Below, in pieces: positions 2,533-26,759 of a DNA stretch of 29,799 bases. The DNA lies in the sequence record SRR31156797_505; one strand, written 5' to 3'. Under the pieces are notes generated by a model. The model did no database searches, was not told where the DNA came from, and worked only from the letters and a program-made list of their open reading frames with translations. The first letter of the stretch is position 1. Each line of letters opens with the position of its first letter. Position numbers and translations under genes: made by a program.

Positions 2533-4581
2533 CTATTTAGCAGGTCCAACCTCAGTTGCTTTCATCATAGGCTTATCTTTCGCCTCGAAGCCTGCTTTTT
2601 TCATGATGGTTTCTATCGCTATGTTATGAAGCTTATCGTTAGGAGCTTTACCTACGTTCTTCACAACTTTATCCCATGATTCCTTGTCTGCGGACTGGTA
2701 TGAGTGACAGCTTAGGCAAGCGTTTACACGCCAGATCTTCTGCTGTTCCTCTTTGTTGAATGGGCGTGCACCGTAGTGACTTGTCGCCTGAATCTGATTA
2801 CCGTCCTCGTCAACAATACGCTCAAGCTCAAAGTCTATGTCGAGACCGTTTTTGCGTGAGTCGTAAACTCCACCGCCGAGACCGAGAGCTTTCTTGCTTG
2901 CGTGGCAAGATTCGCATGTCCTTGGTGTCGCTGATGTTGTATGCGGAACAATAGGGTTTTGTGCTAATCCGCTATGTCCGTCTGATGTGGTGAAAACGTG
3001 GCTGTCGTATTTAACGCCGTCAGCATTCTCGCCGCCAACCTGTGTGAATATCGCCTGACATCCAGGTACGAACGGAGATACTTTGCCTTCGTGGTTTATA
3101 CCGAGCACAGGGTCTTCCCAGCGTACATACGAGCGTGTCTCTTTCCAGCTGTAGGCAGTTTTGTCTCTATTGCCTTTGAGAGCGGCCTGCGAAGGATCTT
3201 TCGCGCCGTCTTTAGCTGTGAGCCAGTCACCGTTTTTCTTGCTGATGTTTTGCTGTGCGTGGCAGCCGTAACATTGTGGAGCCCAGCCGGAGTGGCATGT
3301 GTAACACTCGAGTTTGCCCTGATGAGCTTCGAGCTTCATTGCAACCTGTGCGCTGACAGTTCCGTTTTCTACGTGGTCTTTCGCCTGAGGAACCACCAGT
3401 TGTTTTTTAGAACGCTTGGTTGTGAGTACAACCTTGTCGCCTTCTTGCTTAAGGTTATCAATCTTTTCGCCATTCTTTTCGTATTTAAGAGTTGAATACT
3501 CTGTATAGTCACCGTGGCAGTCAGTACACTGAACTTCTATAGCCATCCATTTTTTGGAATAGATGTTTCCGTCACCGTGCATTTCACGTGTGTTGTGACA
3601 GTCGATACAGTCCATGCCTGCATCAAAGTGTGCATCAGCCTGAAGGTGATTATAATTTTTACCGTGGAGCTTTGCTCCGGCTTTCTTGCCGAACTTTTCA
3701 TCGTCCCAAGGTGAGCCGTAGCCGTCTGATTCCATCATACCTGTGTATGAAACACCAGTTCTTGCGCCTCTGTTATGACAATGCTGGCACTGCCATGTGT
3801 CCATAAAACGCTCAAGCTTGTGAACTTTCGCTCTAGGTTTTTTAATAGCGCCTTTTTCGTTCTTAGCGTTGAGGTAAGGCTTCATCTTGTCGCCGCCCTT
3901 ATATGTTCCGTCGTTATCGTAAGGGACGTGACACGCAGCACAACCTGAAGCTCTGTAGTCGCCCGCTCTCTGGTGACCGGTAGACCAAACGTGGCAACGG
4001 AGACACTGATTTCTCAGGTAGTCATCTGCCGGATGGTTGGTGTCAGAGATAGGTTTTGCAGGGTCGTAGTATGGGAGCTCTTTCAGGCTAGGGAGTGCAT
4101 TTTCCGATTTAACATCACCATCTTTATCTTCGACAGCGTATGTAGCATAAATTGCATTCTTATCAGCCTGTGCGTTCCATGTGTATCTTGTTCCGCTGAT
4201 GATACCTGCTGATGTGCCGTGAAGAGATTTAGCGACATTGTCGACATACTCATCGTGACAGGTTCCGCAGGTTTCGCCGATAACACGGAGATCGGTAGGG
4301 TTCGCATACATGCCTTTGTGTGCGGCATCTTTTGAGTCGCCCTGATCATTACCCATATGACAGTCGGTACAGCCGAGGTCTGCCATATCTGGGATGTCAG
4401 TAAATTTCTCAATACCTTCGTGACAGCCGAGACAGCCCTTTTCAGGTGCTGGGTTCATCATCACGCCGGAGTCAGTTTTTGCAATTGCTTCTTTCGGTGC
4501 AACAGACATGCAGGCCGAAAGAACAACCACAGCAAAAAGAGCAGCCAGTATAGGTACAAATAAAAACGCTCTCTTTCTCAT
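2533..4581 (-). CDS. Dodecaheme c-type cytochrome lipoprotein, resembling the ExtM-like multiheme family; 682 aa
   Basis: 12 CxxCH motifs: CLGCH, CTDCH, CGTCH, CLRCH, CAACH, CQHCH, CIDCH, CTDCH, CYTCH, CYGCH, CESCH, CLSCH. Start re-assigned to the ATG at 4581, which has an AAGGAGG RBS. This gives MRKRAFLFVPILAALFAVVVLSAC, a signal peptide with an LSAC lipobox. The family resemblance is recalled from motif layout, not from a search. Confidence 0.9.
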   Translation of the reverse strand: MRKRAFLFVPILAALFAVVVLSACMSVAPKEAIAKTDSGVMMNPAPEKGCLGCHEGIEKFTDIPDMADLGCTDCHMGNDQGDSKDAAHKGMYANPTDLRVIGETCGTCHDEYVDNVAKSLHGTSAGIISGTRYTWNAQADKNAIYATYAVEDKDGDVKSENALPSLKELPYYDPAKPISDTNHPADDYLRNQCLRCHVWSTGHQRAGDYRASGCAACHVPYDNDGTYKGGDKMKPYLNAKNEKGAIKKPRAKVHKLERFMDTWQCQHCHNRGARTGVSYTGMMESDGYGSPWDDEKFGKKAGAKLHGKNYNHLQADAHFDAGMDCIDCHNTREMHGDGNIYSKKWMAIEVQCTDCHGDYTEYSTLKYEKNGEKIDNLKQEGDKVVLTTKRSKKQLVVPQAKDHVENGTVSAQVAMKLEAHQGKLECYTCHSGWAPQCYGCHAQQNISKKNGDWLTAKDGAKDPSQAALKGNRDKTAYSWKETRSYVRWEDPVLGINHEGKVSPFVPGCQAIFTQVGGENADGVKYDSHVFTTSDGHSGLAQNPIVPHTTSATPRTCESCHASKKALGLGGGVYDSRKNGLDIDFELERIVDEDGNQIQATSHYGARPFNKEEQQKIWRVNACLSCHSYQSADKESWDKVVKNVGKAPNDKLHNIAIETIMKKAGFEAKDKPMMKATEVGPAK

Positions 4582-4615
4582 GATATTCCTCCTTATTAGT
4601 AACAGATATCTATTA

Positions 4616-4632
4616 TGCAAAAGGAGTGCCAA
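4616..4632 (-). promoter_or_regulatory. Sigma-54 (-24/-12) promoter of the dodecaheme cytochrome gene
   Basis: The minus strand reads TTGGCACTCCTTTTGCA, i.e. TGGCAC-N5-TTGCA with exact GG-N10-GC spacing, about 35 nt upstream of the ATG. A sigma-54 activator gene is adjacent. Confidence 0.88.
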
Positions 4633-11325: not shown

Positions 11326-12522
11326 ATGCCTGAAAATAAAATTGGAGCAGTTCGTTTAAGCGGTTTGATCATAGGACCTATTTTGGGCTCTGGGATACTT
11401 ATCCTTCCTCCTCTTAGTGTCGAGGTTATGGGTGATTGGGCAATCGTCGGCTGGATTTTGATGATTTGCCTCAGCTTTCTTTTTGCGTTCATTTTCAGCT
11501 ATATGTCTATCAAGTTTCCCGGAGACGCTGGTGTAGCTAATGCGATTGAATACTCATACGGAAAGGGAGCCAAGCAGCTTGCGGCTTTTTATCTTACCGG
11601 AGCGGCATTTTTCGGGCCTGTTGCTGTGCTTCTGACAGCGGCGAAATACATTAATATTGATACTGGCTTATCTGATAATACTCTCGCATTTATGATACTT
11701 ATATTTGCACTTTTTCTCCTGCTTAAGCGTGTCACATCAGTGGGGACAGTATCATTTATCATGTCGTCAATATCCGCTGTAACACTTTTCATTGGCGGGA
11801 TAGCATGCCTTTTAACCGATAAAAAACCATTTGCTCCTATGGACGACTTCGAACCGATGAGCTTCGGCTATGGGCTTCTGCTTCTCTTTTGGACAATAGT
11901 CGGATGGGAGATTATCGGGAACTATACCGCAGTGATGAAAGATCCTGCAAAAACTTTGCCGAAGGCTGTTGTGTTTAGTGCATTGATAATTGCAACAGTG
12001 ACCCTGACCGTAGTTAGTGCTATACAGTGGATCGATCATGATGGTCAACTTTCCATGACTCTTATAGTTGAGCCTATATTTGGAGAGTATTCTTCATATA
12101 TTATTGCTGTCCTCGCATTTTCCCTTTGCGGGGCTACATATATGGCGTTCACAGGTGCAGTTGCGAGGCTTCTGAATGCTCTCTCTGTGAGTGGAACCCT
12201 GCCTGAATTTCTATCAGGGAGAAATAAAGCTGATGCTCCGTCCAGCGCACTGTATGTGATAGTGTGTGTTCATATCGCTATTCTTTTAATTAACAGGCTT
12301 GGCTGGGCTGATGTTGAATCTCTTGTTTCAGTTGCAGACAGTTTCTTTCTGGCTAATGCGATGATGGGGCTTCTTGCGGGCGTGAGGATACTTGAGCAGC
12401 CTGCTCTAAGGGGTGCTTCTGCTCTGCTTGCTCTGGTGTTTTTTATTATCCTCTGTTTTTCTGCACCTCTGGCGCTCGTCATACTGTTTTTAATGGCGAT
12501 ATCAATACCTTTGGTGGTGTAA
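11326..12522 (+). CDS. APC-family amino acid permease/exporter (YjeH-like)
   Basis: Multi-TM hydrophobic protein with TM1 motif GPILGSGILILP, FPGDAGV and FWTIVGWE. Divergent from the LysR gene. GAGGTG RBS. Confidence 0.8.
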   Translation: MPENKIGAVRLSGLIIGPILGSGILILPPLSVEVMGDWAIVGWILMICLSFLFAFIFSYMSIKFPGDAGVANAIEYSYGKGAKQLAAFYLTGAAFFGPVAVLLTAAKYINIDTGLSDNTLAFMILIFALFLLLKRVTSVGTVSFIMSSISAVTLFIGGIACLLTDKKPFAPMDDFEPMSFGYGLLLLFWTIVGWEIIGNYTAVMKDPAKTLPKAVVFSALIIATVTLTVVSAIQWIDHDGQLSMTLIVEPIFGEYSSYIIAVLAFSLCGATYMAFTGAVARLLNALSVSGTLPEFLSGRNKADAPSSALYVIVCVHIAILLINRLGWADVESLVSVADSFFLANAMMGLLAGVRILEQPALRGASALLALVFFIILCFSAPLALVILFLMAISIPLVV

Positions 12523-12813: not shown

Positions 12814-13836
12814 ATGGAAATGGTTGAATTTATATTTAGCGAAAGTGACAAGGGGCAGGTTCGTCAGTTGCTTTCATCCTACAATCTTAATTATGACGAG
12901 GATTATGACACACTTATGGGTGTGCACGATGCGAATGGTCGCTTAGTCGCTACTGGAGCGAGGAGTGGTTATATCCTTAAAATGATTGCTGTTGCAGAAG
13001 ACAGCCAGTCAACAGACCTGTACTCTGAGATCCTTACAGCTCTTGTCGAAGATGGCTATAGGGCAGGACATGAATCTTTTTTCGTTTTCACTAAGCCTGA
13101 GTTTTACTCAGCTTTCACAGCGCTTAATTTTCATATGCTGAGTATCACATCAAAAGTTGTTCTGCTCGAATATGGCAAGGGTATCAAGAGCTATCTGAAC
13201 AGGCATAAATCTAAAGTGAAAGATGGCGATAATGGTGCAGTTATTGTGAACTGCAACCCATTCACAAGAGGACATCAGTACCTTATAGAGCGTGCAGCAG
13301 AGAAGTGTGACAACTTGTATGTATTTGTAGTGGAAGAAGATTCATCAACATTTCCTTACAATGTCCGTATGCGTCTCGTCCAGCAAGGGACAGAGCACCT
13401 TAGCAATGTGACAGTTCTGCCAACAGGGAATTACGCTGTCAGCAGAGGCACATTTCCGTCTTATTTTATAAGTCAGGATGTGGATATCATCACCCATCAG
13501 ATTGAGACAGATCTGAATATTTTCGCGAAGCACATCGCCCCGTTTTTTAACATTAAAACACGTTTCGCAGGTACAGAGCCTTACTGCTCCATAACCGGAA
13601 GATATAACGAAGGTATGGACGAAATATTACCCGCAAATGGTGTTGCATTTGAAGAGATAAAAAGAGCAGAGCTAGGTGAGAGTGACTATATAAGCGCATC
13701 GAAAGTGCGCAAGCTCATATCAGAAGACAAGATAGAAGAGGCTGGCAGATATCTGCCTGAAACTACTTATAAATATATAAAATCAGATGAATTTACAAAT
13801 GATGTAAACATCAATGTTATGGCAGGGAGGCACTGA
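12814..13836 (+). CDS. citC: [Citrate (pro-3S)-lyase] ligase
   Basis: GNAT-like N-terminus, NCNPFTRGHQYL, FVVEED, FPSYF, RFAGTEP and ISASKVR. Confidence 0.95.
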   Translation: MEMVEFIFSESDKGQVRQLLSSYNLNYDEDYDTLMGVHDANGRLVATGARSGYILKMIAVAEDSQSTDLYSEILTALVEDGYRAGHESFFVFTKPEFYSAFTALNFHMLSITSKVVLLEYGKGIKSYLNRHKSKVKDGDNGAVIVNCNPFTRGHQYLIERAAEKCDNLYVFVVEEDSSTFPYNVRMRLVQQGTEHLSNVTVLPTGNYAVSRGTFPSYFISQDVDIITHQIETDLNIFAKHIAPFFNIKTRFAGTEPYCSITGRYNEGMDEILPANGVAFEEIKRAELGESDYISASKVRKLISEDKIEEAGRYLPETTYKYIKSDEFTNDVNINVMAGRH

Positions 13837-14105
13837 TGGATATCTTGAAAAAGGCGCAGGCTGGGACAATGCAGTCGAGTGACATTATGGTTTTTATAGA
13901 GCCGGCATCAAGCTTTGAACTGGATATTGAATCCACAGTTGCAAAGCAGTTTGAGCACCTTATTCGTGCAAAAGTGCTCGATACCCTTGATGAGATGGGA
14001 GTGGAAAACGGATATGTCAGAGTGAGCGATAGAGGCGCACTTGATTACGCCATTGAGGCTAGGGTTAAGACAGCAGTTATCCGCTCTGGCGGAGGTGTTT
14101 CATGA
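13836..14105 (+). CDS. citD: Citrate lyase acyl carrier protein (gamma subunit)
   Basis: AQAGTMQSSD (prosthetic-group Ser region), IESTVAKQF and DRGALDYAIEARV. TGATG coupling with citC. Confidence 0.95.
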   Translation: MDILKKAQAGTMQSSDIMVFIEPASSFELDIESTVAKQFEHLIRAKVLDTLDEMGVENGYVRVSDRGALDYAIEARVKTAVIRSGGGVS

Positions 14106-14575
14106 AAGGTGCATGGTTTAAAGCTTGTGACTCAGGTCGCAGATTTATGCTTAAAATATCTCAGGGCGAAGATATACATGAACGCCTGAAAGCCTTTGCC
14201 AGAGAAGCAGATGTGAAGAATGCCGTTATTATCTCAGGGATCGGATCTGTAAGTGACGTTAAATTCAGAGGGATTAAATCCGGAGCAAAACTTCCGCTTA
14301 CCCCTGCGAGGACACGCATTCACGAAGACGAAGGTCCTCTTGAGCTATTAGCTTTGACAGGAAATATCTTTCCTGATGAGAATGACGAAATAGATGTGCA
14401 TATACATATTTCAATGTCGAAATCATCCGGTGAGGTGATCGGCGGGCACATTTTCGAGGCGAAAGTTTTTGCATCGTGTGAGCTTCTTGTTTCTGAGATT
14501 ATCGTGACAGGTATAGAGAGGCACGTTTCAAAATCTGCTGGTACAGCAACTATTTATATCGAGGACGAAAAATGA
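14102..14575 (+). CDS. PPC-domain (DUF296) protein, predicted Zn-binding
   Basis: KISQGEDIHERL, SGIGSV, ELLALTGNI and HIHISMS...VIGGH (HxH...H triad). ATGA overlaps with both citD and citE. Confidence 0.88.
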   Translation: MKGAWFKACDSGRRFMLKISQGEDIHERLKAFAREADVKNAVIISGIGSVSDVKFRGIKSGAKLPLTPARTRIHEDEGPLELLALTGNIFPDENDEIDVHIHISMSKSSGEVIGGHIFEAKVFASCELLVSEIIVTGIERHVSKSAGTATIYIEDEK

Positions 14576-15498
14576 ATAAGGAAGAAGTTCAGCTCAGACG
14601 TTCGATACTTTATGTTCCCGGGAACATGCCATCAATGCTACAGAATATCCCTATTTTTCAGTGTGATGCAGTTTTTATGGACCTTGAGGACGCAGTTCCG
14701 CTCAGCGAAAAAGATGCTGCCCGTGAGCTGGTTGCAAAGTTTCTCGAAACCTATACAGATAGAAATAAAGAAGTTTTTGTCCGTATAAACGCCCTCGATA
14801 CTGAGTGGGGGTACAACGACCTCGCAAGGGTGCTTCAGGCGAAGCCGGACGGTATAAGGCTTCCGAAAGCTGATACGTCAGAGATAGTTGAGAGGCTCGA
14901 CACACTCCTGACAGAGTTTGAGGAAGACCTCGGATTTGAGATAGGCACTTTTAAGATTATCCCTTCCATAGAGAGTGCGCAGGGTATCATCAACTGCATC
15001 AAGATTGCAAGATGTTCATCGAGGGTTATAGCTCTCGCATTTGGCGCAGAGGATTATACTGCCAGCATGGAGATCGAACGAACCAAGAGCGGTGAGGAGC
15101 TTTTCCACGCACGAACAAGGGTTGTCTGGGCGGCTAAGGCGGCGGGCATCATGGCGATAGATACAATATTTGCAGATGTGTCAGATATGGATAGCTTCGC
15201 AACAGAAGTGGCACTTATAAAGAATCTCGGTTTTTCAGGTAAGTCACTTGTAAATCCTAGACAGATTGAGATTGTTCATGAAATTTTTGCCCCTACAAAA
15301 GATGAAATAGAGAATGCAAAAGATGTTATCGAAGCGATTATAAAAGCCCGTGAGATGGGCACAGGCGTTATCTCGCTGAATGGAAAGATGGTGGATGCGC
15401 CGGTTGTGAAGCGTGCGGTGAGAGTGATCAGAACTGCGATTTCTCAGGGACTTATAGATTTCGAACTGGATGAAGAGGTGATTTATGGTGCGAAATAG
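14572..15498 (+). CDS. citE: Citrate lyase beta subunit (citryl-ACP lyase)
   Basis: RRSILYVPG, DLEDAV, VRIN, RLPK, IESAQG, GAEDY, GK..VNPRQ and GKMVDAP. Confidence 0.95.
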   Translation: MNKEEVQLRRSILYVPGNMPSMLQNIPIFQCDAVFMDLEDAVPLSEKDAARELVAKFLETYTDRNKEVFVRINALDTEWGYNDLARVLQAKPDGIRLPKADTSEIVERLDTLLTEFEEDLGFEIGTFKIIPSIESAQGIINCIKIARCSSRVIALAFGAEDYTASMEIERTKSGEELFHARTRVVWAAKAAGIMAIDTIFADVSDMDSFATEVALIKNLGFSGKSLVNPRQIEIVHEIFAPTKDEIENAKDVIEAIIKAREMGTGVISLNGKMVDAPVVKRAVRVIRTAISQGLIDFELDEEVIYGAK

Positions 15499-17023
15499 TC
15501 TAGGCAGAGAACTGCCGGAAAGTTTTAACGGGAAAAAAGTCGTACCTTATGAAGATCCGTTCTCCAGAATGCCGAATGCTGAGCGTGCCACAAGACCTGT
15601 GCGTAAGGTTATCCCTGAGCAGAGCAAAATGCTTGCGAGCATACGTGAGGCGATCGTCGCATCCGGGCTGAAAGACGGGATGACAATAGCAACCCACCAC
15701 CACCTTAGAAATGGTGACCAGCTTTTGAATATGGTCGTGAAGGAGATAGACTCCCTCGGCATCAAAGATATAAAGATTGCATCAAGCTCCATACACCCAG
15801 TGCATGCTGAGCTTATTCCATATGTAAATAAGGGCGTTATCTCAGCTTTTGAGTGCGGAGTGAACGGACTGATAGGTGAGCTCGCATCGAAAGGTGAGCT
15901 GAAATGCCCTATCACAGTACGCACCCACGGCGGGCGTGCGAGAGCGATGGTTACAGGCGATGTTAAGGTTGATGTGTCGTTTATTGCTGCGCCAACTTGC
16001 GACGAGTACGGGAACATGAACGGCTATTACGGTCCATCAGCCTGCGGAAGCTTGGGCTATGCACACCTTGATGCGATGTACTCTGAAAAGGTTATCGCAG
16101 TTACTGACAACTTAAAGCCTTACCCTGTCGCACCAGTGTCTATATCCCAGGTTGATGTTGACTATGTTGTCTGTGTTGAAAATCTCGGCGATCCATCGAA
16201 GATAGTATCAACCACTACAAGGATAACTAAAGATCCGATAGGGCTTCTGATAGCAAAATATGCGGCGGAAGTTATCGAGTCAGCAGGCATGATGAAAGAC
16301 GGTTTCTCCTTTCAGACCGGGAGCGGAGGAACATCCCTCGCCGTGGCTGATAATGTCCGTAAAAAGATGCTCGAAAAAGGTATCAAAGGTAGTTTCGGCT
16401 CAGGCGGTATAACAGGATATTTTGTGCAGATGCTCGAGGACGGGCTATTTGAAGCTCTGTTTGACGTGCAATGTTTCGATCTTGATGCTGTAGAGTCAAT
16501 TGGTCGCAACATGAACCACCTTGAGATCAGTGCTGACATGTATGCTAATCCGTTTAACAGCGGATGCGTGGTGAACCAGCTCGATACTGTAATCCTTGGG
16601 GCTACTGAGGTTGATGTTAATTTCAATGTGAATGTAAATACAGAATCGAACGGCTATCTGCTTCATAATACTGGCGGGCACAGCGACACGGCAGCCGGAG
16701 CGAAACTTTCAATAATCACAGCACCTTCCATAAGGGGCAGGCTTCCAATTATTCGTGACAGTGTGACAACGGTTACGACTCCTGGCGAGACTGTAGATGT
16801 TATCGTTTGCGAGCGTGGTATAGCTGTGAATGAGAAACACGAAGACCTACGCCGTGAGCTCGAGAAGAGACACCTTCCGGTTAAAGATATTCGTCAGCTT
16901 CAGAAAGAGATCATCAGCATTACAGGCGAACCTAAACCTATTGAGTTCGAAGATGATGTTATTGCGCTTATCGAATACAGAGACGGGAGCATTATCGATG
17001 CAGTTAGACGAGTTAAAGAGTAA
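15485..17023 (+). CDS. citF: Citrate lyase alpha subunit (citrate-ACP transferase)
   Basis: GLKDGMTIATHHHLRNGD, THGGR, CGSLGYA, FQTGSGG, YANP, GGHSDTA and IEYRDG. Confidence 0.96.
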   Translation: MVRNSLGRELPESFNGKKVVPYEDPFSRMPNAERATRPVRKVIPEQSKMLASIREAIVASGLKDGMTIATHHHLRNGDQLLNMVVKEIDSLGIKDIKIASSSIHPVHAELIPYVNKGVISAFECGVNGLIGELASKGELKCPITVRTHGGRARAMVTGDVKVDVSFIAAPTCDEYGNMNGYYGPSACGSLGYAHLDAMYSEKVIAVTDNLKPYPVAPVSISQVDVDYVVCVENLGDPSKIVSTTTRITKDPIGLLIAKYAAEVIESAGMMKDGFSFQTGSGGTSLAVADNVRKKMLEKGIKGSFGSGGITGYFVQMLEDGLFEALFDVQCFDLDAVESIGRNMNHLEISADMYANPFNSGCVVNQLDTVILGATEVDVNFNVNVNTESNGYLLHNTGGHSDTAAGAKLSIITAPSIRGRLPIIRDSVTTVTTPGETVDVIVCERGIAVNEKHEDLRRELEKRHLPVKDIRQLQKEIISITGEPKPIEFEDDVIALIEYRDGSIIDAVRRVKE

Positions 17024-17492
17024 GTTACTCGCAGCACGTGAGAAACGTGGCGAGATATTTGAAAACTATAAAGAGTTTGATGGCTCTACGCTGGTTATAT
17101 CCACTAACACTCCAGGGGTGAACAAGCTTCCGGATGGTATCCGTGAGGTATTCTCTGATGGGTGCGAATCTGTGGAGGAGCGGTTGAGGGTTAGACATAT
17201 CCTTAGCGGTGAGGACGCCGCAGGGCTTTATATGGTTTGTAAGTGTGAAGAGATGGCGGAAACGGCGAAGCGTATTACTGTATGGATCGAGGAAAATCTA
17301 CCAGCGGGAAGACTGCTGGATATAGATATATATAAACAAGACGAGCAGCTGGGCAGGCGTGAAATAGGGCTTCCGGCGAGGAAGTGCATCGTCTGCGATG
17401 AACCGGCTGTTGATTGCATAAGGAGCAAAAACCATGATATCCACATTATCACCAATCAAGTTGAAAAAATGTTGCAGCGAGCTCACAGCTGA
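16998..17492 (+). CDS. citX: Apo-citrate lyase phosphoribosyl-dephospho-CoA transferase (holo-ACP synthase), 164 aa
   Basis: LLAAREKR, NTPGVNK, K...IEE..PAGRLLDID and RKCIVCDEPA..CIRS..H. Start re-assigned to the ATG at 16998 (GGGAG RBS). Confidence 0.9.
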   Translation: MQLDELKSKLLAAREKRGEIFENYKEFDGSTLVISTNTPGVNKLPDGIREVFSDGCESVEERLRVRHILSGEDAAGLYMVCKCEEMAETAKRITVWIEENLPAGRLLDIDIYKQDEQLGRREIGLPARKCIVCDEPAVDCIRSKNHDIHIITNQVEKMLQRAHS

Positions 17493-18252
17493 AGAAATTA
17501 TCGGCGCACTCATAGAGGGTGCTAAAGAGGAGCTTCTCCTCACGCCTAAGCCGGGGCTTGTAGATATATACGATAACGGGTCACATGATGATCTTGATTA
17601 CGCAAAGATGTGTAAGTCTATTAAACTCTTAAAGCCTTATCTCGAGGAACTTGCGCAAAATGTAGAAAAAGGAACAACACTCCACGAAGCGAGAGAAACA
17701 GGCGTTATGGCTGAGCACAGGATGATCGATGAGTGCGGAACCAACACGCATAAAGGGTACATCTTCCTCAGTGGGCACTTCCTTATCTCAGCTCTTTCGA
17801 GAGAGGACGCACGTGAGGGAATCAAGGATATCGCTGAGGCACTCTTCGAAGATCTGCCGGCGGGGACAAAAGGCGCAATGGCACGCAAAGAGTTTGGTGT
17901 TGGCGGGATAATCAAAGAGGCTTTAGCCGGATTTCCTGCTGTGTTTGATGATGCGCTGCCAGCTTTCAGGGAAAAACTTGCAGAGACTGGATGCCGTCAG
18001 ACAGCTTCCGTGCTTGCTATGGCGAGGCTGATGCAAACTGTTGAAGACACCACAGCGCTCCACAGGTGCGGGAAGGAAGGTCTGAAAAGTATTAAGGCTG
18101 ATGGAAAGAGGATAGAGAAACTCATCAGAAAGGGGAAACCTGTGCATGGATTCCTCTTTGACCTGAACGAAAAATATAAAAAGATGAACCTTACTATGGG
18201 CGGTGTAGCTGATATGCTTGCACTCACCTTCGCTCTCGACAGGATAGTTTAG
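17434..18252 (+). CDS. citG: Triphosphoribosyl-dephospho-CoA synthase
   Basis: ELLLTPKPGLVD..DNGSHDD, NTHKG, DTT.LHR and GGVADMLA. AAGGAG RBS at 17420. Overlaps citX by 59 nt. Confidence 0.93.
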   Translation: MISTLSPIKLKKCCSELTAEEIIGALIEGAKEELLLTPKPGLVDIYDNGSHDDLDYAKMCKSIKLLKPYLEELAQNVEKGTTLHEARETGVMAEHRMIDECGTNTHKGYIFLSGHFLISALSREDAREGIKDIAEALFEDLPAGTKGAMARKEFGVGGIIKEALAGFPAVFDDALPAFREKLAETGCRQTASVLAMARLMQTVEDTTALHRCGKEGLKSIKADGKRIEKLIRKGKPVHGFLFDLNEKYKKMNLTMGGVADMLALTFALDRIV

Positions 18253-18267
18253 AATATTACAGTAAGA

Positions 18268-18939
18268 CTATAAATGGTTTACGAGTTGTGTGAGAGAGCT
18301 GGCATGGGACTTGAGCTGGTCAATAAGTTCACTGTTGGCTTTCTCGCGAACTCTATTTATCGGTCCGGATATTGAGAGAGCACCGAAAAACTTGCCGTCT
18401 TCGTCGAAAATAGGTACGGCTATCGCACCGAGAAATGCTTCACGTTCGCCGAAAGTTACTGCGTGACCGTCTTTTTTAGTGCTGCACTCCTCACCGTTTA
18501 AATATGCTAAAAGCACTCTTCCGGCGGCACCTTTATCCAGCGGAACCATCTGCCCTATGGTGACTGTGTGGCGCACTGGTGAATCGCACTCAATCTTCAT
18601 CAGGCATTTGCGGAAATCACCCTCCTGAACGTAAAGAGCGATTGTCTCGCCACTTATCTCCATTATACTGTTAAGGATTTTCCACACAGAATGGTAGGCA
18701 TTGTTTCCTGCTATGTATATCTGCGCTGTTTCGAGCATCTTTGCGCCCAGGCGGTATCTTTCAGTCATGGAGTTTTCGGTTAGGAAATTATTATCTGAAA
18801 GTGTGCGGCAGAGCCTTTCTGCCTCTTCTTCTGAAATATTAATTTTGCCGGACAGTTCTACTACGGACAGGTCTATGTCCTGAATGGTGAAACAGCTTAA
18901 TATCTTTAGTGCTTTTTCCAAATCGGTAGGCTTGCTCAA
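18268..18939 (-). CDS. IclR-family transcriptional regulator
   Basis: LEKALKILSCF winged HTH, YRLG, GETIAL, GAAGRVLLAY and AIAVPIFD...ALSISGP..R. TTG start with a GGAGAAGG RBS. Confidence 0.9.
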   Translation of the reverse strand: MSKPTDLEKALKILSCFTIQDIDLSVVELSGKINISEEEAERLCRTLSDNNFLTENSMTERYRLGAKMLETAQIYIAGNNAYHSVWKILNSIMEISGETIALYVQEGDFRKCLMKIECDSPVRHTVTIGQMVPLDKGAAGRVLLAYLNGEECSTKKDGHAVTFGEREAFLGAIAVPIFDEDGKFFGALSISGPINRVREKANSELIDQLKSHASSLTQLVNHL

Positions 18940-19003: not shown

Positions 19004-19786
19004 TTAGTATTCCGGAGTGTAAAGTTCAACTTCGTTGTCGTTTAAGATGCTTACGATGTTCGCAGGCGGTTCCTTGTCTGTGACGAGTGTGTCTATCTCT
19101 GCGATGTTGCAGAGGCGAACCATTGCGCTCCGACCGAATTTTGAATGGTCGGTGGCGAGCATAACCTGACGGGAATTCTCTATGATAGCCTGTGCTACAC
19201 GTACTTCACGATAGTCGTAGTCCAGCAGGGTTCCGTCTTCATCTACTCCTGAGATTCCGATTATTCCTATATCCACTTTGAACTGCTTGATAAAGTCGAG
19301 GGTTGCCTCGCCTATTATTCCGCTGTCACGGTTACGGACAACTCCGCCAGCGATGCGCACTTCAAACGATGGGTTTGTGATAAGTGTCTGAGCTACATTG
19401 AGGTTGTTGGTTATAACTCTCAGCCCTTCGTGATTTTTAAGAGCTTTTGCGATCTCTTCGTTTGTTGTTCCGATATTAATGAAGATGGAAGCTTTATTCG
19501 GTATCTTCGAAGCTACAATTTTCGCTATGCGTACTTTTTCGTCGTGGTTGAGGATGAGTCTGGTGTTATAGTCGAGGTTTTCAACTGAGCTTGCGAGTGA
19601 TGCTCCGCCGTGGTGGCGTTTCAGGTGCCCCTTTTCACATAGAGAGTTGATGTCCCTTCTGATTGTCTGAGGGGTTACGCTGAACTTCTCAGCTAAAAGC
19701 TCCGTGGTGACAAAACCTGTCTCTTGTGTCATCTCTATGATATCTTTCTGTCGCTGGTTTATTTCTGCCATTGAGCTCTTTCCCAT
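19004..19786 (-). CDS. glpR: Glycerol-3-phosphate regulon repressor (DeoR family)
   Basis: HTH FSVTPQTIRRDINSL, RHHGGA, FINIGTTNEEIA, TNNLNVA and LLDYDYREVRV. Divergent from glpF. Confidence 0.93.
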   Translation of the reverse strand: MGKSSMAEINQRQKDIIEMTQETGFVTTELLAEKFSVTPQTIRRDINSLCEKGHLKRHHGGASLASSVENLDYNTRLILNHDEKVRIAKIVASKIPNKASIFINIGTTNEEIAKALKNHEGLRVITNNLNVAQTLITNPSFEVRIAGGVVRNRDSGIIGEATLDFIKQFKVDIGIIGISGVDEDGTLLDYDYREVRVAQAIIENSRQVMLATDHSKFGRSAMVRLCNIAEIDTLVTDKEPPANIVSILNDNEVELYTPEY

Positions 19787-19867
19787 CCTAACCTCTTTTC
19801 GGTAATCATTTTCTTTATTGTATATGAAAACAAAAAACTTTCAATCGTTTCGTTTGAGTTTTGAATA

Positions 19868-19918
19868 TATGTTCGTTTGCGCAAATCTATTGTATATTTA
19901 TTCATAAATTCGAATATT
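19868..19918. promoter_or_regulatory. GlpR operator half-sites near the glpR promoter
   Basis: TATGTTCGTT (19868-19877, a perfect half-site) and TTCGAATATT (19909-19918). Confidence 0.55.
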
Positions 19919-20106
19919 AAAAAGTGCATATATTAAAGAAAACGTGACTATATTTACTAATTGGTAGTTAAACTATATACGCTTTATACAATCTATGGAG
20001 ACTAATTTAACATTTTTTACGCATGTAAACACTTGTATTCAAAAGCAAATACGCTATATTTTAATGATGAAAATAAAACAAAATTAAAGTTTTTGCAAAA
20101 TTTTCA

Positions 20107-20172
20107 TTTACAATCATAAAACAGGGTGATATTGTACAAATATGAACATAAAGCGAAACAACTTCGAAAATA
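20107..20172 (+). promoter_or_regulatory. glpF sigma-70 promoter followed by GlpR half-sites
   Basis: TTTACA-N17-TATTGT with an extended -10 TG. It is followed by TGAACAT, CGAAACA and CGAAAAT at 11-bp spacing; TTCGAAAATA (20163-20172) is a perfect half-site. Confidence 0.6.
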
Positions 20173-20215
20173 AATAATAATTTTTCTTAGTTATCTTATA
20201 CAGGAGGCTTCGTTT

Positions 20216-20938
20216 ATGAATATTTTTATTGGAGAGCTGATCGGAACAGCGATACTTATACTTCTTGGTAACGGGGTTGTTGCCAACGTAGTATTGAACA
20301 AATCAAAGGGTCAGAATTCTGGCTGGATAGTTATTACACTTGGATGGGGGATGGCGGTTGCAGTTGCAGTATACACTGCCGGATGGATGAGCGGTGCTCA
20401 CCTTAATCCTGCGGTAACAGTTGCGCTCGCTTACACAGGCGGAATTGAGCTTTCTTCTGTTCCTGCGTATGTAGCAGGTCAGATGGTAGGAGCAATGATA
20501 GGTATGGTTTTTGTATGGCTTTCATACGGTGACCACTGGAAAGCGACAGAAGATGCAGGCGGGAAACTCGCTTGTTTCGCAACAGGTCCTGCTATTCGTG
20601 ACTATAAAAAGAACTTCGTAACTGAGATGATAGGTACAGCTATGCTCGTTTGCGGTGTTCTCGGTATCACAGCCACACAGAACGGGCTTGGTGCTGGTAT
20701 TGCGCCTCTCCTTGTTGGTTTTCTCGTACTTAGTATTGGTCTTTCACTCGGCGGTCCTACGGGTTATGCTATTAACCCTGCAAGAGACCTCGGGCCGAGA
20801 ATCATGCACGCAATCCTCCCTGTTCCTGGGAAGGGTTCATCCGACTGGGGTTACGCATGGGTTCCTGTAGTCGCTCCGCTGGTTGGTGGTGTGCTCGGTG
20901 CTATGGTTTATAATCTAGCAGTAAACCTCTCTAAATAA
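20216..20938 (+). CDS. glpF: Glycerol uptake facilitator (MIP aquaglyceroporin)
   Basis: [10 protein letters not shown] and [12 protein letters not shown], with the glyceroporin D after the second NPA. AGGAGG RBS. Confidence 0.96.
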
Positions 20939-20952
20939 TAGGAGTTATAGAT

Positions 20953-22464
20953 ATGTCTAAATATGTAGCAGCAATTGATCAGGGAACAACAAGCTCCCGC
21001 TGTATGATTTTTAATAAAGCAGGAGAGGTTATCTCTTCACATCAGCTTGAGCATGAGCAGATTTATCCTGAGCCGGGCTGGGTTGAGCATGATGCTATGG
21101 AAGTTTGGGAGAGAACAAAAGAAGTTATCGCAGGCTCTATGCAGATGGCAGGTCTCGATGCGAAAGACATAGTTGCTGTTGGTGTAACTAACCAGCGTGA
21201 GACAACAGTAGTTTGGAATAAAAAAACAGGTCGTCCTTATCATAACGCACTCGTTTGGCAGGACACCAGAACAGATAAAATATGTGATGAGCTCGCAGGT
21301 GAAGTTGGTCAGGACAGATTCCGTGAGAAGACAGGTCTTCCACTCGCTACATACTTCTCCGGACCAAAGATTAAATGGCTTCTCGATAACGTAGATGGTC
21401 TTCGTGCTGATGCTGAAAAGGGCGATGCCCTTTTTGGTAACATGGACACATGGATTATCTGGAACGTGACAGGCGGGGTAAACGGTGGTGCACACGTAAC
21501 TGACGTTTCAAACGCATCCAGAACTATGCTTATGGATCTTAAAACCTGTGACTGGGACGATGAACTTCTCGCAGCGATGAGTGTTCCAAAAGCTATGATG
21601 CCGGAAGTCAGACCTTCTTCAGATCCTGATTTCTACGGTAAAACAGTTAAGAACGGACCTTTTGGCGGTGAGATACCAGTTGCTGGTGATCTTGGTGACC
21701 AGCAGGCGGCTACGGTTGGTCAGGCTTGCTTTACACCTGGCGAAGCTAAGAATACATACGGTACAGGTTGCTTCATGCTTATGAATACAGGTACTGAGAT
21801 TGTTCAGTCTGAGCACGGTCTCCTTACTACTGCTTGCTATAAATTTGGTAAAGATAAAACAGTTTACGCTCTCGAAGGCTCTATTGCTATCGCTGGTGCG
21901 GTAGTTCAGTGGCTTCGTGATAATATGAGACTTATCAATACAGCTGCTGACGTTGAAAACCTTGCTAAAATGGTAAAAGATAACGGTGGTATGTACTTTG
22001 TTCCTGCCTTTTCAGGGCTATTTGCTCCATACTGGAGAAGTGATGCAAGAGGTGTAATCGTTGGTATGACAAGATATATCAAGCGTGGTCACTTCGCACG
22101 TGCCGCTCTGGAAGCCGTTGCTTTCCAGACGAAAGAAGTTTTAGACGCTATGGAAGCGGACTCTAAGGTTAACCTTAAAGAGCTTCGTGTTGACGGCGGT
22201 ATGGTGGCTAATAACCTTCTTATGCAGATGCAGTCTGACATTCTCGGCGTACCAGTAACACGCCCTATCGTTTCTGAGAGTACAGCTCTCGGTGCGGCTT
22301 ATGCAGCAGGTCTTGCTGTTGGATACTGGGATAACCTTGACGATCTTAAGAAGAACTGGGGTGTCGATAAGACATTCAAGCCTTCTGTTGATGATACGCT
22401 TAGAACTTCCAGCTATGCACAATGGAAGAAAGCGGTTACCAGGACACTCGACTGGGTTGAGTAA
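20953..22464 (+). CDS. glpK: Glycerol kinase
   Basis: [45 protein letters not shown] and VDGG. Confidence 0.97.
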
Positions 22465-22476
22465 TAATTGTATATC

Positions 22477-22510
22477 GTCCGGCACTCTTAAATGGGTGCC
22501 GGCTTTTTTT
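22477..22510 (+). terminator. Intrinsic terminator after glpK
   Basis: CCGGCACTC...GGGTGCCGG stem followed by T7. Confidence 0.85.
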
Positions 22511-22604
22511 GCGTCAGCTATTCGTGCTGACTGGAATCATTTCAGAATAAAGCTCTCTTTTTTTTGATTTTGTTACATGTGTGTGAGGGAGGGTTTTGTT
22601 TTTA

Positions 22605-22634
22605 AATGTTCGTTTTCGAATATAAATATTCGTT
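22605..22634. promoter_or_regulatory. GlpR operator upstream of glpD
   Basis: AATGTTCGTT-TTCGAATATA (19/20 match to the dyad consensus), plus half-site AATATTCGTT 20 bp later. Confidence 0.75.
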
Positions 22635-22702
22635 TTGGTGTTGATTTATGATAATAAAAGCACTAATATGAAAATAGAAGTACACAAGCTTAGGAGATAA
22701 AG

Positions 22703-24316
22703 ATGAACAGAGATAAAGCTATTCAGGCACTTAAAGCAGGGGAAACATACGATGTTCTTGTTATCGGTGGAGGAGCAACAGGCTCTGGAGTAGCTCTTGA
22801 TGCAGCGAGCAGAGGGCTTAAGGTCGCTCTCGTTGAGAAGAACGACTTCGCAGAAGGTACAAGCTCCAGAAGCACAAAGATGGTACACGGTGGGGTACGC
22901 TATCTCGAAAAGGCTGTAAAACGCCTCGACAGAGAGCAGTACAGCCTTGTTAAAGAGGGGCTTCACGAGAGGGGCATCTTTCTCAAAAATGCACCACACC
23001 TCGCTACTCCGCTCTCATTTGTGACACCTCTATATAGGTGGATAGATGTTCCGCAGGTTTTCGCAGGGCTTAAGCTTTACGATATCCTCTCAGGAAAGAT
23101 GAACATAGGTAAAAGCCAGTTTCTCAGCAAGAAGCAGGTTCAGGAAAGATATCCTATGGTAAATGATAAAAACCTCAAGGCTGGCGTACTTTACTACGAC
23201 GGTCAGTTTAACGATGCCCGCATGGGTGTTTATATATTAAAGACTGCTGTTGAACAGGGCGCAGTTGTAGCAAATCACCTCGAGGTGACTGAGCTTATAA
23301 AAGATGGTGAAAAGGTCAGAGGGGCGAAGGTTAGGGACGAGTTTACGGGGGAACAGTTCGATATTAAGGCAACATGTGTTGTTAACGCTACAGGGCCTTT
23401 TGCAGATTCTATCCGTAAGCTAGACGTGAAAGAGTCTAAAGAGATACTCAAGGTTAGCTCGGGCGTGCATATTATGCTTGATAAACGTTTCTCGCCACCG
23501 GAGAACGGTCTCATGATTCCTAAAACAGACGACGGAAGAGTTCTTTTCGTTATCCCGTGGGAAGGGCACACTATCATCGGAACTACTGATGAGCCGGCAG
23601 AAATCTCTGAGCACCCGAAAGCTCTCGAGGAAGAGATAGAGTATGTTCTCGGATATGCAAATAAATATTTCAACCTTGGCGTTACTAAGGAAGATGTAAA
23701 ATCTTACTGGTCAGGGCTACGTCCTCTCGTTTTCGACCCTGAAAAGGAGAATACACAGGAGCTAGCCAGAACACACGTAATCAAATACAACGGCACAGGG
23801 ATGGTCACAGTCACAGGCGGAAAGTGGACAAGCTACCGCAGGATGGCTGAGGACGTTATGGATGTTGTTGTTGAACAGAATAGATTTGGTCACGCAAATG
23901 AGTGTGTGACAAAAACTCTCCCAATTATTGGTGGAGCAAACTTTCAAGCTGACGGGTACGTTGAACTCATGGAGAAATTTGATCTCGATGAAGACGTTGC
24001 CCGTCATTTGAACACATTCTATGGCGATAGAGCTTATAAGGTGGCAACTCTCGCAAAAGAGGGGTACGAAAAACTTCTTCATCCTGATTACCCTTATCTT
24101 GAGGCGGAGATCATTTATTCAGTTCGCGAAGAGATGGGGATACACGCCGCTGATGTGCTTATCCGCAGGCTCCCGCTTGGGCTGATAGACATTAACGCAA
24201 CTGGAGTTGTTTCAAATAGGGTGATTGAACTTATGGACTCTGAGATCAACTGGTCACACGAAGAGAAAGCAAGAGAGAAAGAGATACTAATGAATAGACT
24301 GAACGAGGCTATATAA
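22703..24316 (+). CDS. glpD: FAD-dependent glycerol-3-phosphate dehydrogenase
   Basis: DVLVIGGGATG, GTSSRSTKMVHGGVRYL, YYDGQFNDAR, NATGPF, SGLRPL and GGKWTSYR. Confidence 0.95.
   Translation: MNRDKAIQALKAGETYDVLVIGGGATGSGVALDAASRGLKVALVEKNDFAEGTSSRSTKMVHGGVRYLEKAVKRLDREQYSLVKEGLHERGIFLKNAPHLATPLSFVTPLYRWIDVPQVFAGLKLYDILSGKMNIGKSQFLSKKQVQERYPMVNDKNLKAGVLYYDGQFNDARMGVYILKTAVEQGAVVANHLEVTELIKDGEKVRGAKVRDEFTGEQFDIKATCVVNATGPFADSIRKLDVKESKEILKVSSGVHIMLDKRFSPPENGLMIPKTDDGRVLFVIPWEGHTIIGTTDEPAEISEHPKALEEEIEYVLGYANKYFNLGVTKEDVKSYWSGLRPLVFDPEKENTQELARTHVIKYNGTGMVTVTGGKWTSYRRMAEDVMDVVVEQNRFGHANECVTKTLPIIGGANFQADGYVELMEKFDLDEDVARHLNTFYGDRAYKVATLAKEGYEKLLHPDYPYLEAEIIYSVREEMGIHAADVLIRRLPLGLIDINATGVVSNRVIELMDSEINWSHEEKAREKEILMNRLNEAI

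Positions 24317-26759
<2,443 letters not shown>

Follow-up and report, generated by a model that had tools for sequence, protein, structure and literature searches.

A PPC/DUF296 gene appears to be a constant seventh member of one citrate lyase operon clade and may encode an accessory lyase subunit

Citrate lyase is described as an enzyme of three subunits (alpha, beta and gamma) served by three helper enzymes, and its genes follow the canonical order citCDEFXG in Klebsiella, E. coli and lactic acid bacteria. PPC/DUF296 proteins have solved structures, yet we know of no function for a bacterial member of the family. Here, we describe a citrate lyase operon in a 29,799-nucleotide stretch of sequence record SRR31156797_505 (the window, meaning that whole stretch), which holds the six genes in their canonical order but carries an additional seventh gene, encoding a PPC/DUF296 protein, between citD and citE. 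Comparison of related loci indicates that this PPC gene belongs as a fixed seventh member to a separate clade of such operons, co-inherited with the operon and translationally coupled within it. We further propose, with a probability of roughly 0.4, that its product attaches to the lyase core as an accessory subunit or adaptor, a binding that we infer from gene arrangement and conservation.

All six citCDEFXG genes of the window were recognised by Pfam, lying contiguously and in a single direction together with the PPC gene:

12814..13836, plus strand: citC, citrate lyase ligase (acetate:SH-citrate lyase ligase); PF08218, E 2.7e-67
13836..14105, plus strand: citD, citrate lyase acyl carrier protein (ACP; gamma); PF06857, E 1.8e-27; TIGR01608, 93.8 bits, above the cut-off of 63.5
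14102..14105, plus strand: ATGA overlap of the citD stop and the PPC start, read in the sequence; GGAGG 7 nt upstream
14102..14575, plus strand: PPC/DUF296 gene, 157 aa; PF03479; between citD and citE
14572..14575, plus strand: ATGA overlap of the PPC stop and the citE start, read in the sequence
14572..15498, plus strand: citE, citryl-ACP lyase (beta); PF03328, E 7.4e-63; TIGR01588, 350.6 bits, below the equivalog cut-off of 443.4
15485..17023, plus strand: citF, citrate:acetyl-ACP transferase (alpha); PF04223, E 2.3e-171; TIGR01584, 645.9 bits, above the cut-off of 501.45
about 16998..17492, plus strand: citX, holo-ACP synthase; probable start at the ATG that is codon 57 of open reading frame (ORF) 16830-17492
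17434..18252, plus strand: citG, triphosphoribosyl-dephospho-CoA synthase; PF01874, E 1e-49

The first-pass annotation of this DNA had described the PPC gene as lying between citD and citE, overlapping each of them by an ATGA and encoding an HxH...GGH motif, and each of these features could be read directly in the window. PF03479 (PCC/PPC, formerly DUF296) was the sole Pfam family matched by the protein (E 2.2e-28; 99.3 bits, the cut-off being 25), spanning residues 13–133 and profile positions 1–115 of 117, and an NCBIfam scan of the protein returned zero matches. Its key residues are H100 and H102 (in VHIHI), G114-G115-H116, C126, E127 and a conserved loop at positions 56–70. For the flanking genes, CitF and CitD scored above their NCBIfam equivalog cut-offs and CitE, CitC, CitX and CitG below theirs, CitC only slightly (TIGR00124, 256.9 bits against 262.1). 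The citC stop and the citD start overlap by 1 nt, and S14 of CitD, within the motif AGTMQSSD, showed no variation in 29 sequences. PF03802 covers residues 65–216 of the ORF that holds citX, and in related loci the citX match starts about 25 nt ahead of the citF stop.

A word-indexed protein search with the PPC protein returned 48 relatives at 47–92% identity. Gene order was compared in two sets of loci, namely a genomic set comprising the best 80 of 94 relatives (from a scan with one genome per species), in which the cit proteins of the window were placed by tblastn, and a metagenomic set comprising 80 of 107 relatives, from a scan seeded with two PPC cluster representatives (P0167 and P0168). 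In the genomic set, citE followed PPC directly in 80 of 80 loci and PPC followed citD directly in 79 of 80, the exception (L002) being a contig that begins 85 nt upstream of PPC; citC, citF, citX and citG kept the order of the window as far as the contigs extend. Intergenic distances were short, with at most 30 nt between citD and PPC in 76 of 79 loci and between PPC and citE in 79 of 80, the latter two genes overlapping in 44 of 80. Similarly, citD and/or citE adjoined PPC in the usual order in all 80 metagenomic loci, any missing partner coinciding with a contig end. The position of PPC is therefore the same in 160 of 160 related loci from at least five phyla, so the arrangement in the window is not a product of chance, and the insertion, for which a survey of other cit operons had been suggested, is conserved in them.

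The hosts, as given by record titles and tree labels, were Thermodesulfobacteriota (including Desulfuromonas, Geomonas, Citrifermentans and Malonomonas), Deferribacterota, Myxococcota (Anaeromyxobacter), Eisenbacteria and, among Pseudomonadota, Propionivibrio and other Rhodocyclaceae as well as Neptunomonas. One Rhodocyclaceae genome carries a second copy (L076) that consists of citD-PPC-citE-citF alone, without citC, citX and citG, on the same contig (CAJQTY010000001.1) as a full citC-to-citG set (L074), which indicates that PPC stays with the structural genes citD, citE and citF. In the flanks of 10 genomic loci and 5 loci whose PPC lacks the His triad, no gene besides citC to citG was steadily linked; CitMHS transporters and two-component systems adjoin the operon in L069 and L074, a Na+ decarboxylase set does so in L048 and L035 (described below), and the remaining flanks carry unrelated genes. 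Matches in the Protein Atlas were to generic PPC clusters only. Together, these loci delineate what appears to be a large operon clade that crosses phyla (Geobacter relatives, Deferribacteres, Anaeromyxobacter, Rhodocyclaceae and Eisenbacteria), always with the seventh gene between those for gamma and beta; this citC-citD-PPC-citE-citF-citX-citG clade would be distinct and would have spread horizontally.

Among the PPC/DUF296 matches listed in our literature search, all concerned plant AHL proteins except one unrelated protease 'PPC domain', and no paper linking DUF296 with citrate lyase was found in the literature searched. In its passage on the cluster, the Geobacter bemidjiensis genome paper names citCDEFXG, Gbem_3862-Gbem_3856, that is, seven locus tags for six named genes (PMC2996986); the seventh gene, which that passage leaves unmentioned, is presumably the PPC gene.

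Since the 160 loci had been found via PPC, genomes were also sampled by citF. In a 201-genome sample of one class (that of G001), with citF counted at E ≤1e-50 and the PPC subfamily at 238 bits or more, citF was present in 45 genomes at 47 places, and the PPC subfamily was present in 39 of these 45, in every case with a citF match of 601 bits or more about 1 kb away. PPC accompanied citF at 39 of the 40 places scoring at least 601 bits (exception, G052:C1) and at none of the seven scoring lower (402–523 bits). Among 68 Deferribacterota genomes, 14 carried citF and 13 of these had PPC beside it (exception, G648), and in no genome of these two samples was the PPC subfamily found without citF. 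A sample of 400 Gammaproteobacteria (class of G003) held citF in two genomes and PPC in one of the two, numbers too small to inform.

The PPC-less clusters, compared at eight places from the class of G001 and in G351 from a second class sample, belong to distant lyase clades, their CitE and CitF being 37–45% and 42–49% identical to those of the window. In a quick CitF tree, for which the careful search was unfinished and two long branches were flagged, 56 rows of the PPC type fell on one side of a branch (Shimodaira-Hasegawa-like approximate likelihood ratio test, 80) and the nine PPC-less rows outside it. In four PPC-less citDEF-like clusters of the same class, a CitD-like and a CitE-like part are fused into one ORF of 401–404 aa:

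L082, 5017-6171: CitD-CitE-like fusion
L084, 5516-6610: CitD-CitE-like fusion
L086, 7351-8502, minus strand: CitD-CitE-like fusion
L089, 4779-5957: CitD-CitE-like fusion

The ACP motif of these fused clusters reads G-N-x-G...S-D-C, as compared with A-G-T-M-Q-S-S-D, and they may represent a different kind of acyl-carrier lyase. The D/E junction therefore joins the two subunits themselves in lineages without PPC, which makes it plausible that a small adaptor should be encoded at this junction.

In 55 loci carrying all seven genes, mean pairwise identity was 0.74 for CitE and for CitF, 0.68 for CitD, 0.615 for PPC, 0.53 for CitC, 0.47 for CitG and 0.41 for CitX, placing PPC between the core and the accessory proteins; its evolution thus resembles that of the core subunits more than that of the helper enzymes. 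PPC distances correlated with those of each other cit protein (r 0.75–0.86), as would be expected from inheritance together with the operon.

Structure prediction placed the protein within the PPC fold, a beta-sandwich that includes a single helix. The AF2 model of the window PPC (mean predicted local distance difference test score, pLDDT, 88.2) was compared by Foldseek and VIA-align, and solved PPC proteins ranked first: 2dt4 (Foldseek E 2e-12; Z 19.9, root-mean-square deviation 2.6 over 143 residues), 2h6l (Foldseek E 1.7e-11) and, counting all besides 2dt4, four further PPC structures at Z 16–18. Acetolactate decarboxylases ranked next (4bt2, Foldseek E 1.6e-4, Z 9.0; 6inb, Z 8.1), followed by PTD012 (1xcr, Foldseek probability 0.96, Z 5.1), in agreement with the kinship to both families that the first-pass annotation had asserted. 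Loop residues 61–69 had low confidence in both monomer models (block pLDDT 57 for the window protein and 44 for P0167) despite their invariant sequence, which fits a segment that becomes ordered upon binding a partner. PPC crystal structures are reported as trimers (PMC4209074).

A profile search of 1.84 billion cluster representatives yielded three full-length clusters above 190 bits, two of which (P0167 and P0168) lack all three His residues. We then counted the triad over 159 full-length copies (158 loci and the window, two loci being dropped for coverage below 140 residues or a stop codon). The three His residues (HHH) are kept in 143 of the 159 copies; the remaining 16 carry QYR (5), EYR (3), RYH (3), QYH (2), RHQ (2) or QHQ (1), and a partial seventeenth non-HHH copy (L170) reads QY-. 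In a FastTree phylogeny these 16 copies group together as a single clade (support 0.998) whose sister group comprises 34 HHH loci, and they are 58–84% identical among themselves. All lie in complete cit operons, whose CitE and CitF are 67–70% and 68–71% identical to those of the window.

Despite the loss of the triad, the gene is intact in this clade and under purifying selection, as judged by the ratio of nonsynonymous to synonymous substitution rates (dN/dS; NG86, pairs with dS 0.3–1.5), which was 0.36 in the non-HHH clade, 0.29 in its sister and 0.27 in the remaining HHH copies; the corresponding values were 0.20 and 0.26 for citD and 0.12 and 0.19 for citE. Thirty-two positions are at least 95% conserved in both HHH and non-HHH groups, among them R13, S45, S49, I58, G61, A62, P65, T67, R70, G78, P79, N88, C126, E127, E132 and S143, and the model of the His-less P0167 has the same order of strands and helix (pLDDT 82.9). 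No change was seen in the non-HHH clade at otherwise invariant residues of CitC, D, E, F, X and G, and the flanks of His-less loci held no compensating gene, decarboxylase included. The six types of replacement look like drift at an abandoned site rather than a newly defined one. Because the triad was lost in a clade that remains embedded in the operon and under selection, the role that keeps PPC there needs no His3 metal site. The proposal of the first-pass annotation that the protein may be a Zn enzyme, whether decarboxylase or deacetylase, is weakened by this clade, though either activity could apply to the 143 copies with the triad; a structural subunit, the option that it had stressed least, now fits best.

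We arrive at an accessory subunit from several observations taken together, namely the position of the gene between those for gamma and beta, a conservation close to that of the core subunits, persistence without the triad, an invariant loop that is disordered in the models and a strand that by pattern matches the partner-binding motif of plant PPC domains. Stop/start coupling would lead PPC to be made in step with CitD (gamma) and CitE (beta), and the protein, small and probably trimeric, would sit as an accessory subunit or adaptor on the lyase core, in contact with CitD, CitE or CitF, where its task could be assembly, ACP tethering or control of activity. Candidate binding surfaces are the disordered invariant loop (I58-G61-A62-x-x-P65-x-T67-x-x-R70), the strand G78-P79-L80-E81-L82-L83 and the residues R13, S45, S49, C126, E127, E132 and S143. 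The His3 metal site would be an added feature serving stability, ligand or effector binding, or secondary catalysis; since one clade lacks it, it would not be central to what the protein does. That His-less clade would be a natural experiment separating scaffolding from a metal-dependent role. A 465-aa protein from one metagenome contig (P0165) had been considered as a PPC-CitE fusion; an unrelated linker of about 27 residues replaces its last PPC strands ahead of CitE, and it is probably a frameshift read-through to which we give no weight.

Several points tell against an accessory subunit. The triad is invariant across five phyla outside the one clade, which means that the metal site is of importance to most lineages. 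Its retention would not be required of a protein with a structural role alone, and the His-less clade could consist of pseudoenzymes with a secondary scaffolding role. Invariant C126-E127, together with a number of Arg and Ser residues that are likewise invariant, has the look of a ligand-binding or active site. The higher dN/dS of the His-less clade than of its sister is compatible with partial loss of function, although these are crude estimates at dS 0.6–1.0.

An alternative idea is that PPC is the citrate lyase deacetylase (EC 3.1.2.16), an enzyme that hydrolyses acetyl-S-citrate lyase and is inhibited by L-glutamate. According to this idea, E127 would act as the base and a water molecule on the Zn would attack acetyl-S-ACP of CitD, so that hydrolysis of the thioester opposes CitC. 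Geobacter relatives, Deferribacteres, Anaeromyxobacter and Rhodocyclaceae are generally respiratory organisms with a full tricarboxylic acid (TCA) cycle, in which such an off-switch would keep the lyase and citrate synthase from cycling futilely. The fold that carries the His3 site also occurs in PTD012, a Zn protein of humans with esterase activity, PPC always accompanies citD, and no gene for EC 3.1.2.16 was found in the literature searched. Giffhorn and co-workers reportedly purified such a deacetylase from Rhodopseudomonas (Rubrivivax) gelatinosa, with a mass of about 14 kDa, L-glutamate as an inhibitor and production that accompanied that of the lyase; it resembles PPC in being small, acting on citrate lyase and being co-formed with it, a comparison made by description, since that enzyme is known as an activity only. 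However, the 16 operon-embedded copies without the triad, still under purifying selection, would have to count as pseudoenzymes; PPC is coupled to the structural genes and is present in L076, which has no citC; and stoichiometric production together with the ligase would cost ATP unless the enzyme were tightly inhibited. The deacetylase reading is attractive, but we regard it as unlikely.

A combined version, in which the deacetylase is built in as a fourth lyase subunit and the His-less clade is a pseudoenzyme keeping the scaffolding half, strikes us as doubtful. If true, it would give bacterial PPC/DUF296 proteins their first biochemical function, and TCA-dependent bacteria a built-in off-switch for citrate lyase.

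The same fold comparison brings in a soluble, metal-dependent oxaloacetate decarboxylase, which would turn the lyase product into pyruvate by a beta-keto acid chemistry like that of acetolactate decarboxylase. The His triad occupies the corresponding position in acetolactate decarboxylases, and invariant Arg residues could hold carboxylates. Other cit operons include a decarboxylase gene, citM; a scan of 24 ORFs in the window turned up no oad or malic-enzyme family, in line with what the first-pass annotation had noted, and oadA was above the cut-off in only one of five host genomes tested. The four oadA-negative genomes, however, carry long pyruvate-carboxylase-like matches, so that a missing oadA says little. 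In L048 (2051-5566) and L035 (2114-5669), citC is immediately preceded, in the same orientation, by genes for a PF01039 carboxyltransferase, OAD_gamma, a biotin carrier and OAD_beta. The domains of this set predict a methylmalonyl-/glutaconyl-CoA-type Na+-translocating decarboxylase and not OadA, pointing to a succinate/propionate route in which oxaloacetate would be reduced, not decarboxylated. Further arguments against a decarboxylase are that the gene is kept in the clade without the triad, where the flanks hold no replacement for such an activity, and that hosts could feed oxaloacetate straight into the TCA cycle. We therefore judge this reading improbable. Membership of PPC in the malic-enzyme type CitM or the OadA family was rejected, as PF03479 is its sole Pfam match and NCBIfam gave none, a result that does not address decarboxylase function itself.

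Another subfamily of PPC/PF03479 proteins, about 140 aa long, is encoded in operons for the cobalamin nucleotide loop and lower ligand (L095, 4229-9200, G038:C23; L092, 5451-7803, G118:C1; L093, G130:C1), in the order CobU, CobT, a ThiC-like radical SAM gene (BzaF-like), PPC, CobS and a CobC-like phosphatase. This is a second instance of a small PPC gene within a metabolic operon.

PPC could also be a ligand-sensing regulatory subunit, or a chaperone for assembly or for the prosthetic group, with an anionic ligand at the His/Cys/Glu/Arg site; a citrate-metal complex, oxaloacetate, glutamate and the phosphoribosyl-dephospho-CoA arm are candidate ligands. Consistent with this, the invariant polar residues are kept even in triad-less copies, and CitMHS metal-citrate transporters adjoin the operon in L069 and L074. 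The cobalamin subfamily, between the ThiC-like radical SAM gene and cobS, adds some support; the cobalamin lower-ligand pathway also handles alpha-linked 5-phosphoribosyl compounds. Conversely, the cit subfamily follows citDEF and occurs only in citF genomes of the samples; because the comparison was made by citF, and not by citX and citG alone, this linkage says nothing about a connection to cofactor synthesis. This reading also overlaps with that of an accessory subunit. We hold a sensing or chaperone role to be an unlikely, tentative option.

Public annotation names homologues 'PPC domain-containing DNA-binding protein', which would make PPC a DNA-binding regulator of the operon. Only these homologue names speak for it. 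The doubt that the first-pass annotation cast on the label was justified: nothing we found supports it, PF03479 being the sole domain, with no DNA-binding domain or AT-hook detected by Pfam at E up to 0.01. In plants, DNA contact is attributed to the AT-hook, which is separate from the PPC domain (PMC4209074). Furthermore, stop/start coupling between structural genes points to stoichiometric production, which is unusual for a regulator, and separate regulators lie nearby, namely the two-component systems of L069 and L074 and, in the window, an IclR-family gene. We consider direct regulation through DNA highly improbable.

18268..18939, minus strand: IclR-family regulator; PF01614 and PF09339; convergent with the cit operon

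This IclR-family gene was not kept beside the cit operon in 10 other loci examined. A promoter scan of the operon gave 9 hits against 10.6 by shuffling, within expectation, and promoter and terminator scans inside the operon gave nothing convincing. The gene preceding the operon (11326-12522, plus strand) encodes an APC-family amino-acid permease (PF13520), which is no known citrate carrier, and no transporter of the CitMHS, CitS or CitT type was found among the window ORFs scanned. Elsewhere in the window lie a gene for a multihaem cytochrome c of 699 aa (2533-4632, minus strand) and a DeoR-glpF-glpK-glpD-pyk-gap cluster (19004-26759); this content fits a metal-respiring host resembling the hosts of related loci.

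Among described proteins, the closest to the window PPC are the solved prokaryotic PPC/DUF296 proteins PH0802 (2dt4), AF0104 (2h6l, a 'metal-containing protein'), BT_1116 (3htn), 2hx0/2nmu, 3hwu and 2p6y, to none of which, as far as we know, a function or a metabolic partner has been assigned. They belong to the same Pfam family, share the fold at Z 16–20 over 129–143 residues and match in sequence (E 8e-12 to 2h6l and 1e-11 to 2dt4), and the HxH...GGH of the window PPC aligns with the corresponding positions of AF0104. The cit subfamily differs from them in a loop (56–77) that is about six residues longer and invariant, in the invariant C126 and in being fixed in one operon. With acetolactate decarboxylase and PTD012/C11orf54, PPC shares the fold and, within the same sheet, a Zn site formed by three His residues; it differs from them as a single domain of 157 aa, about half their size and 12–18% identical, whose triad is dispensable in one clade.

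The plant AHL proteins contain the same Pfam domain, and both they and the cit protein appear to act via protein-protein contacts; judged by alignment pattern, with no computed alignment to a plant sequence, G78-P79-L80-E81-L82-L83 resembles the partner-binding motif of plant PPC domains. AHL proteins are nuclear and fused to an AT-hook, whereas the cit PPC stands alone in a metabolic operon. For the PPC proteins of bacteria, the cit operon would be the first metabolic setting to be pinned down, and the cit and cobalamin operons together offer testable contexts for PPC/DUF296 that argue against the 'DNA-binding' label.

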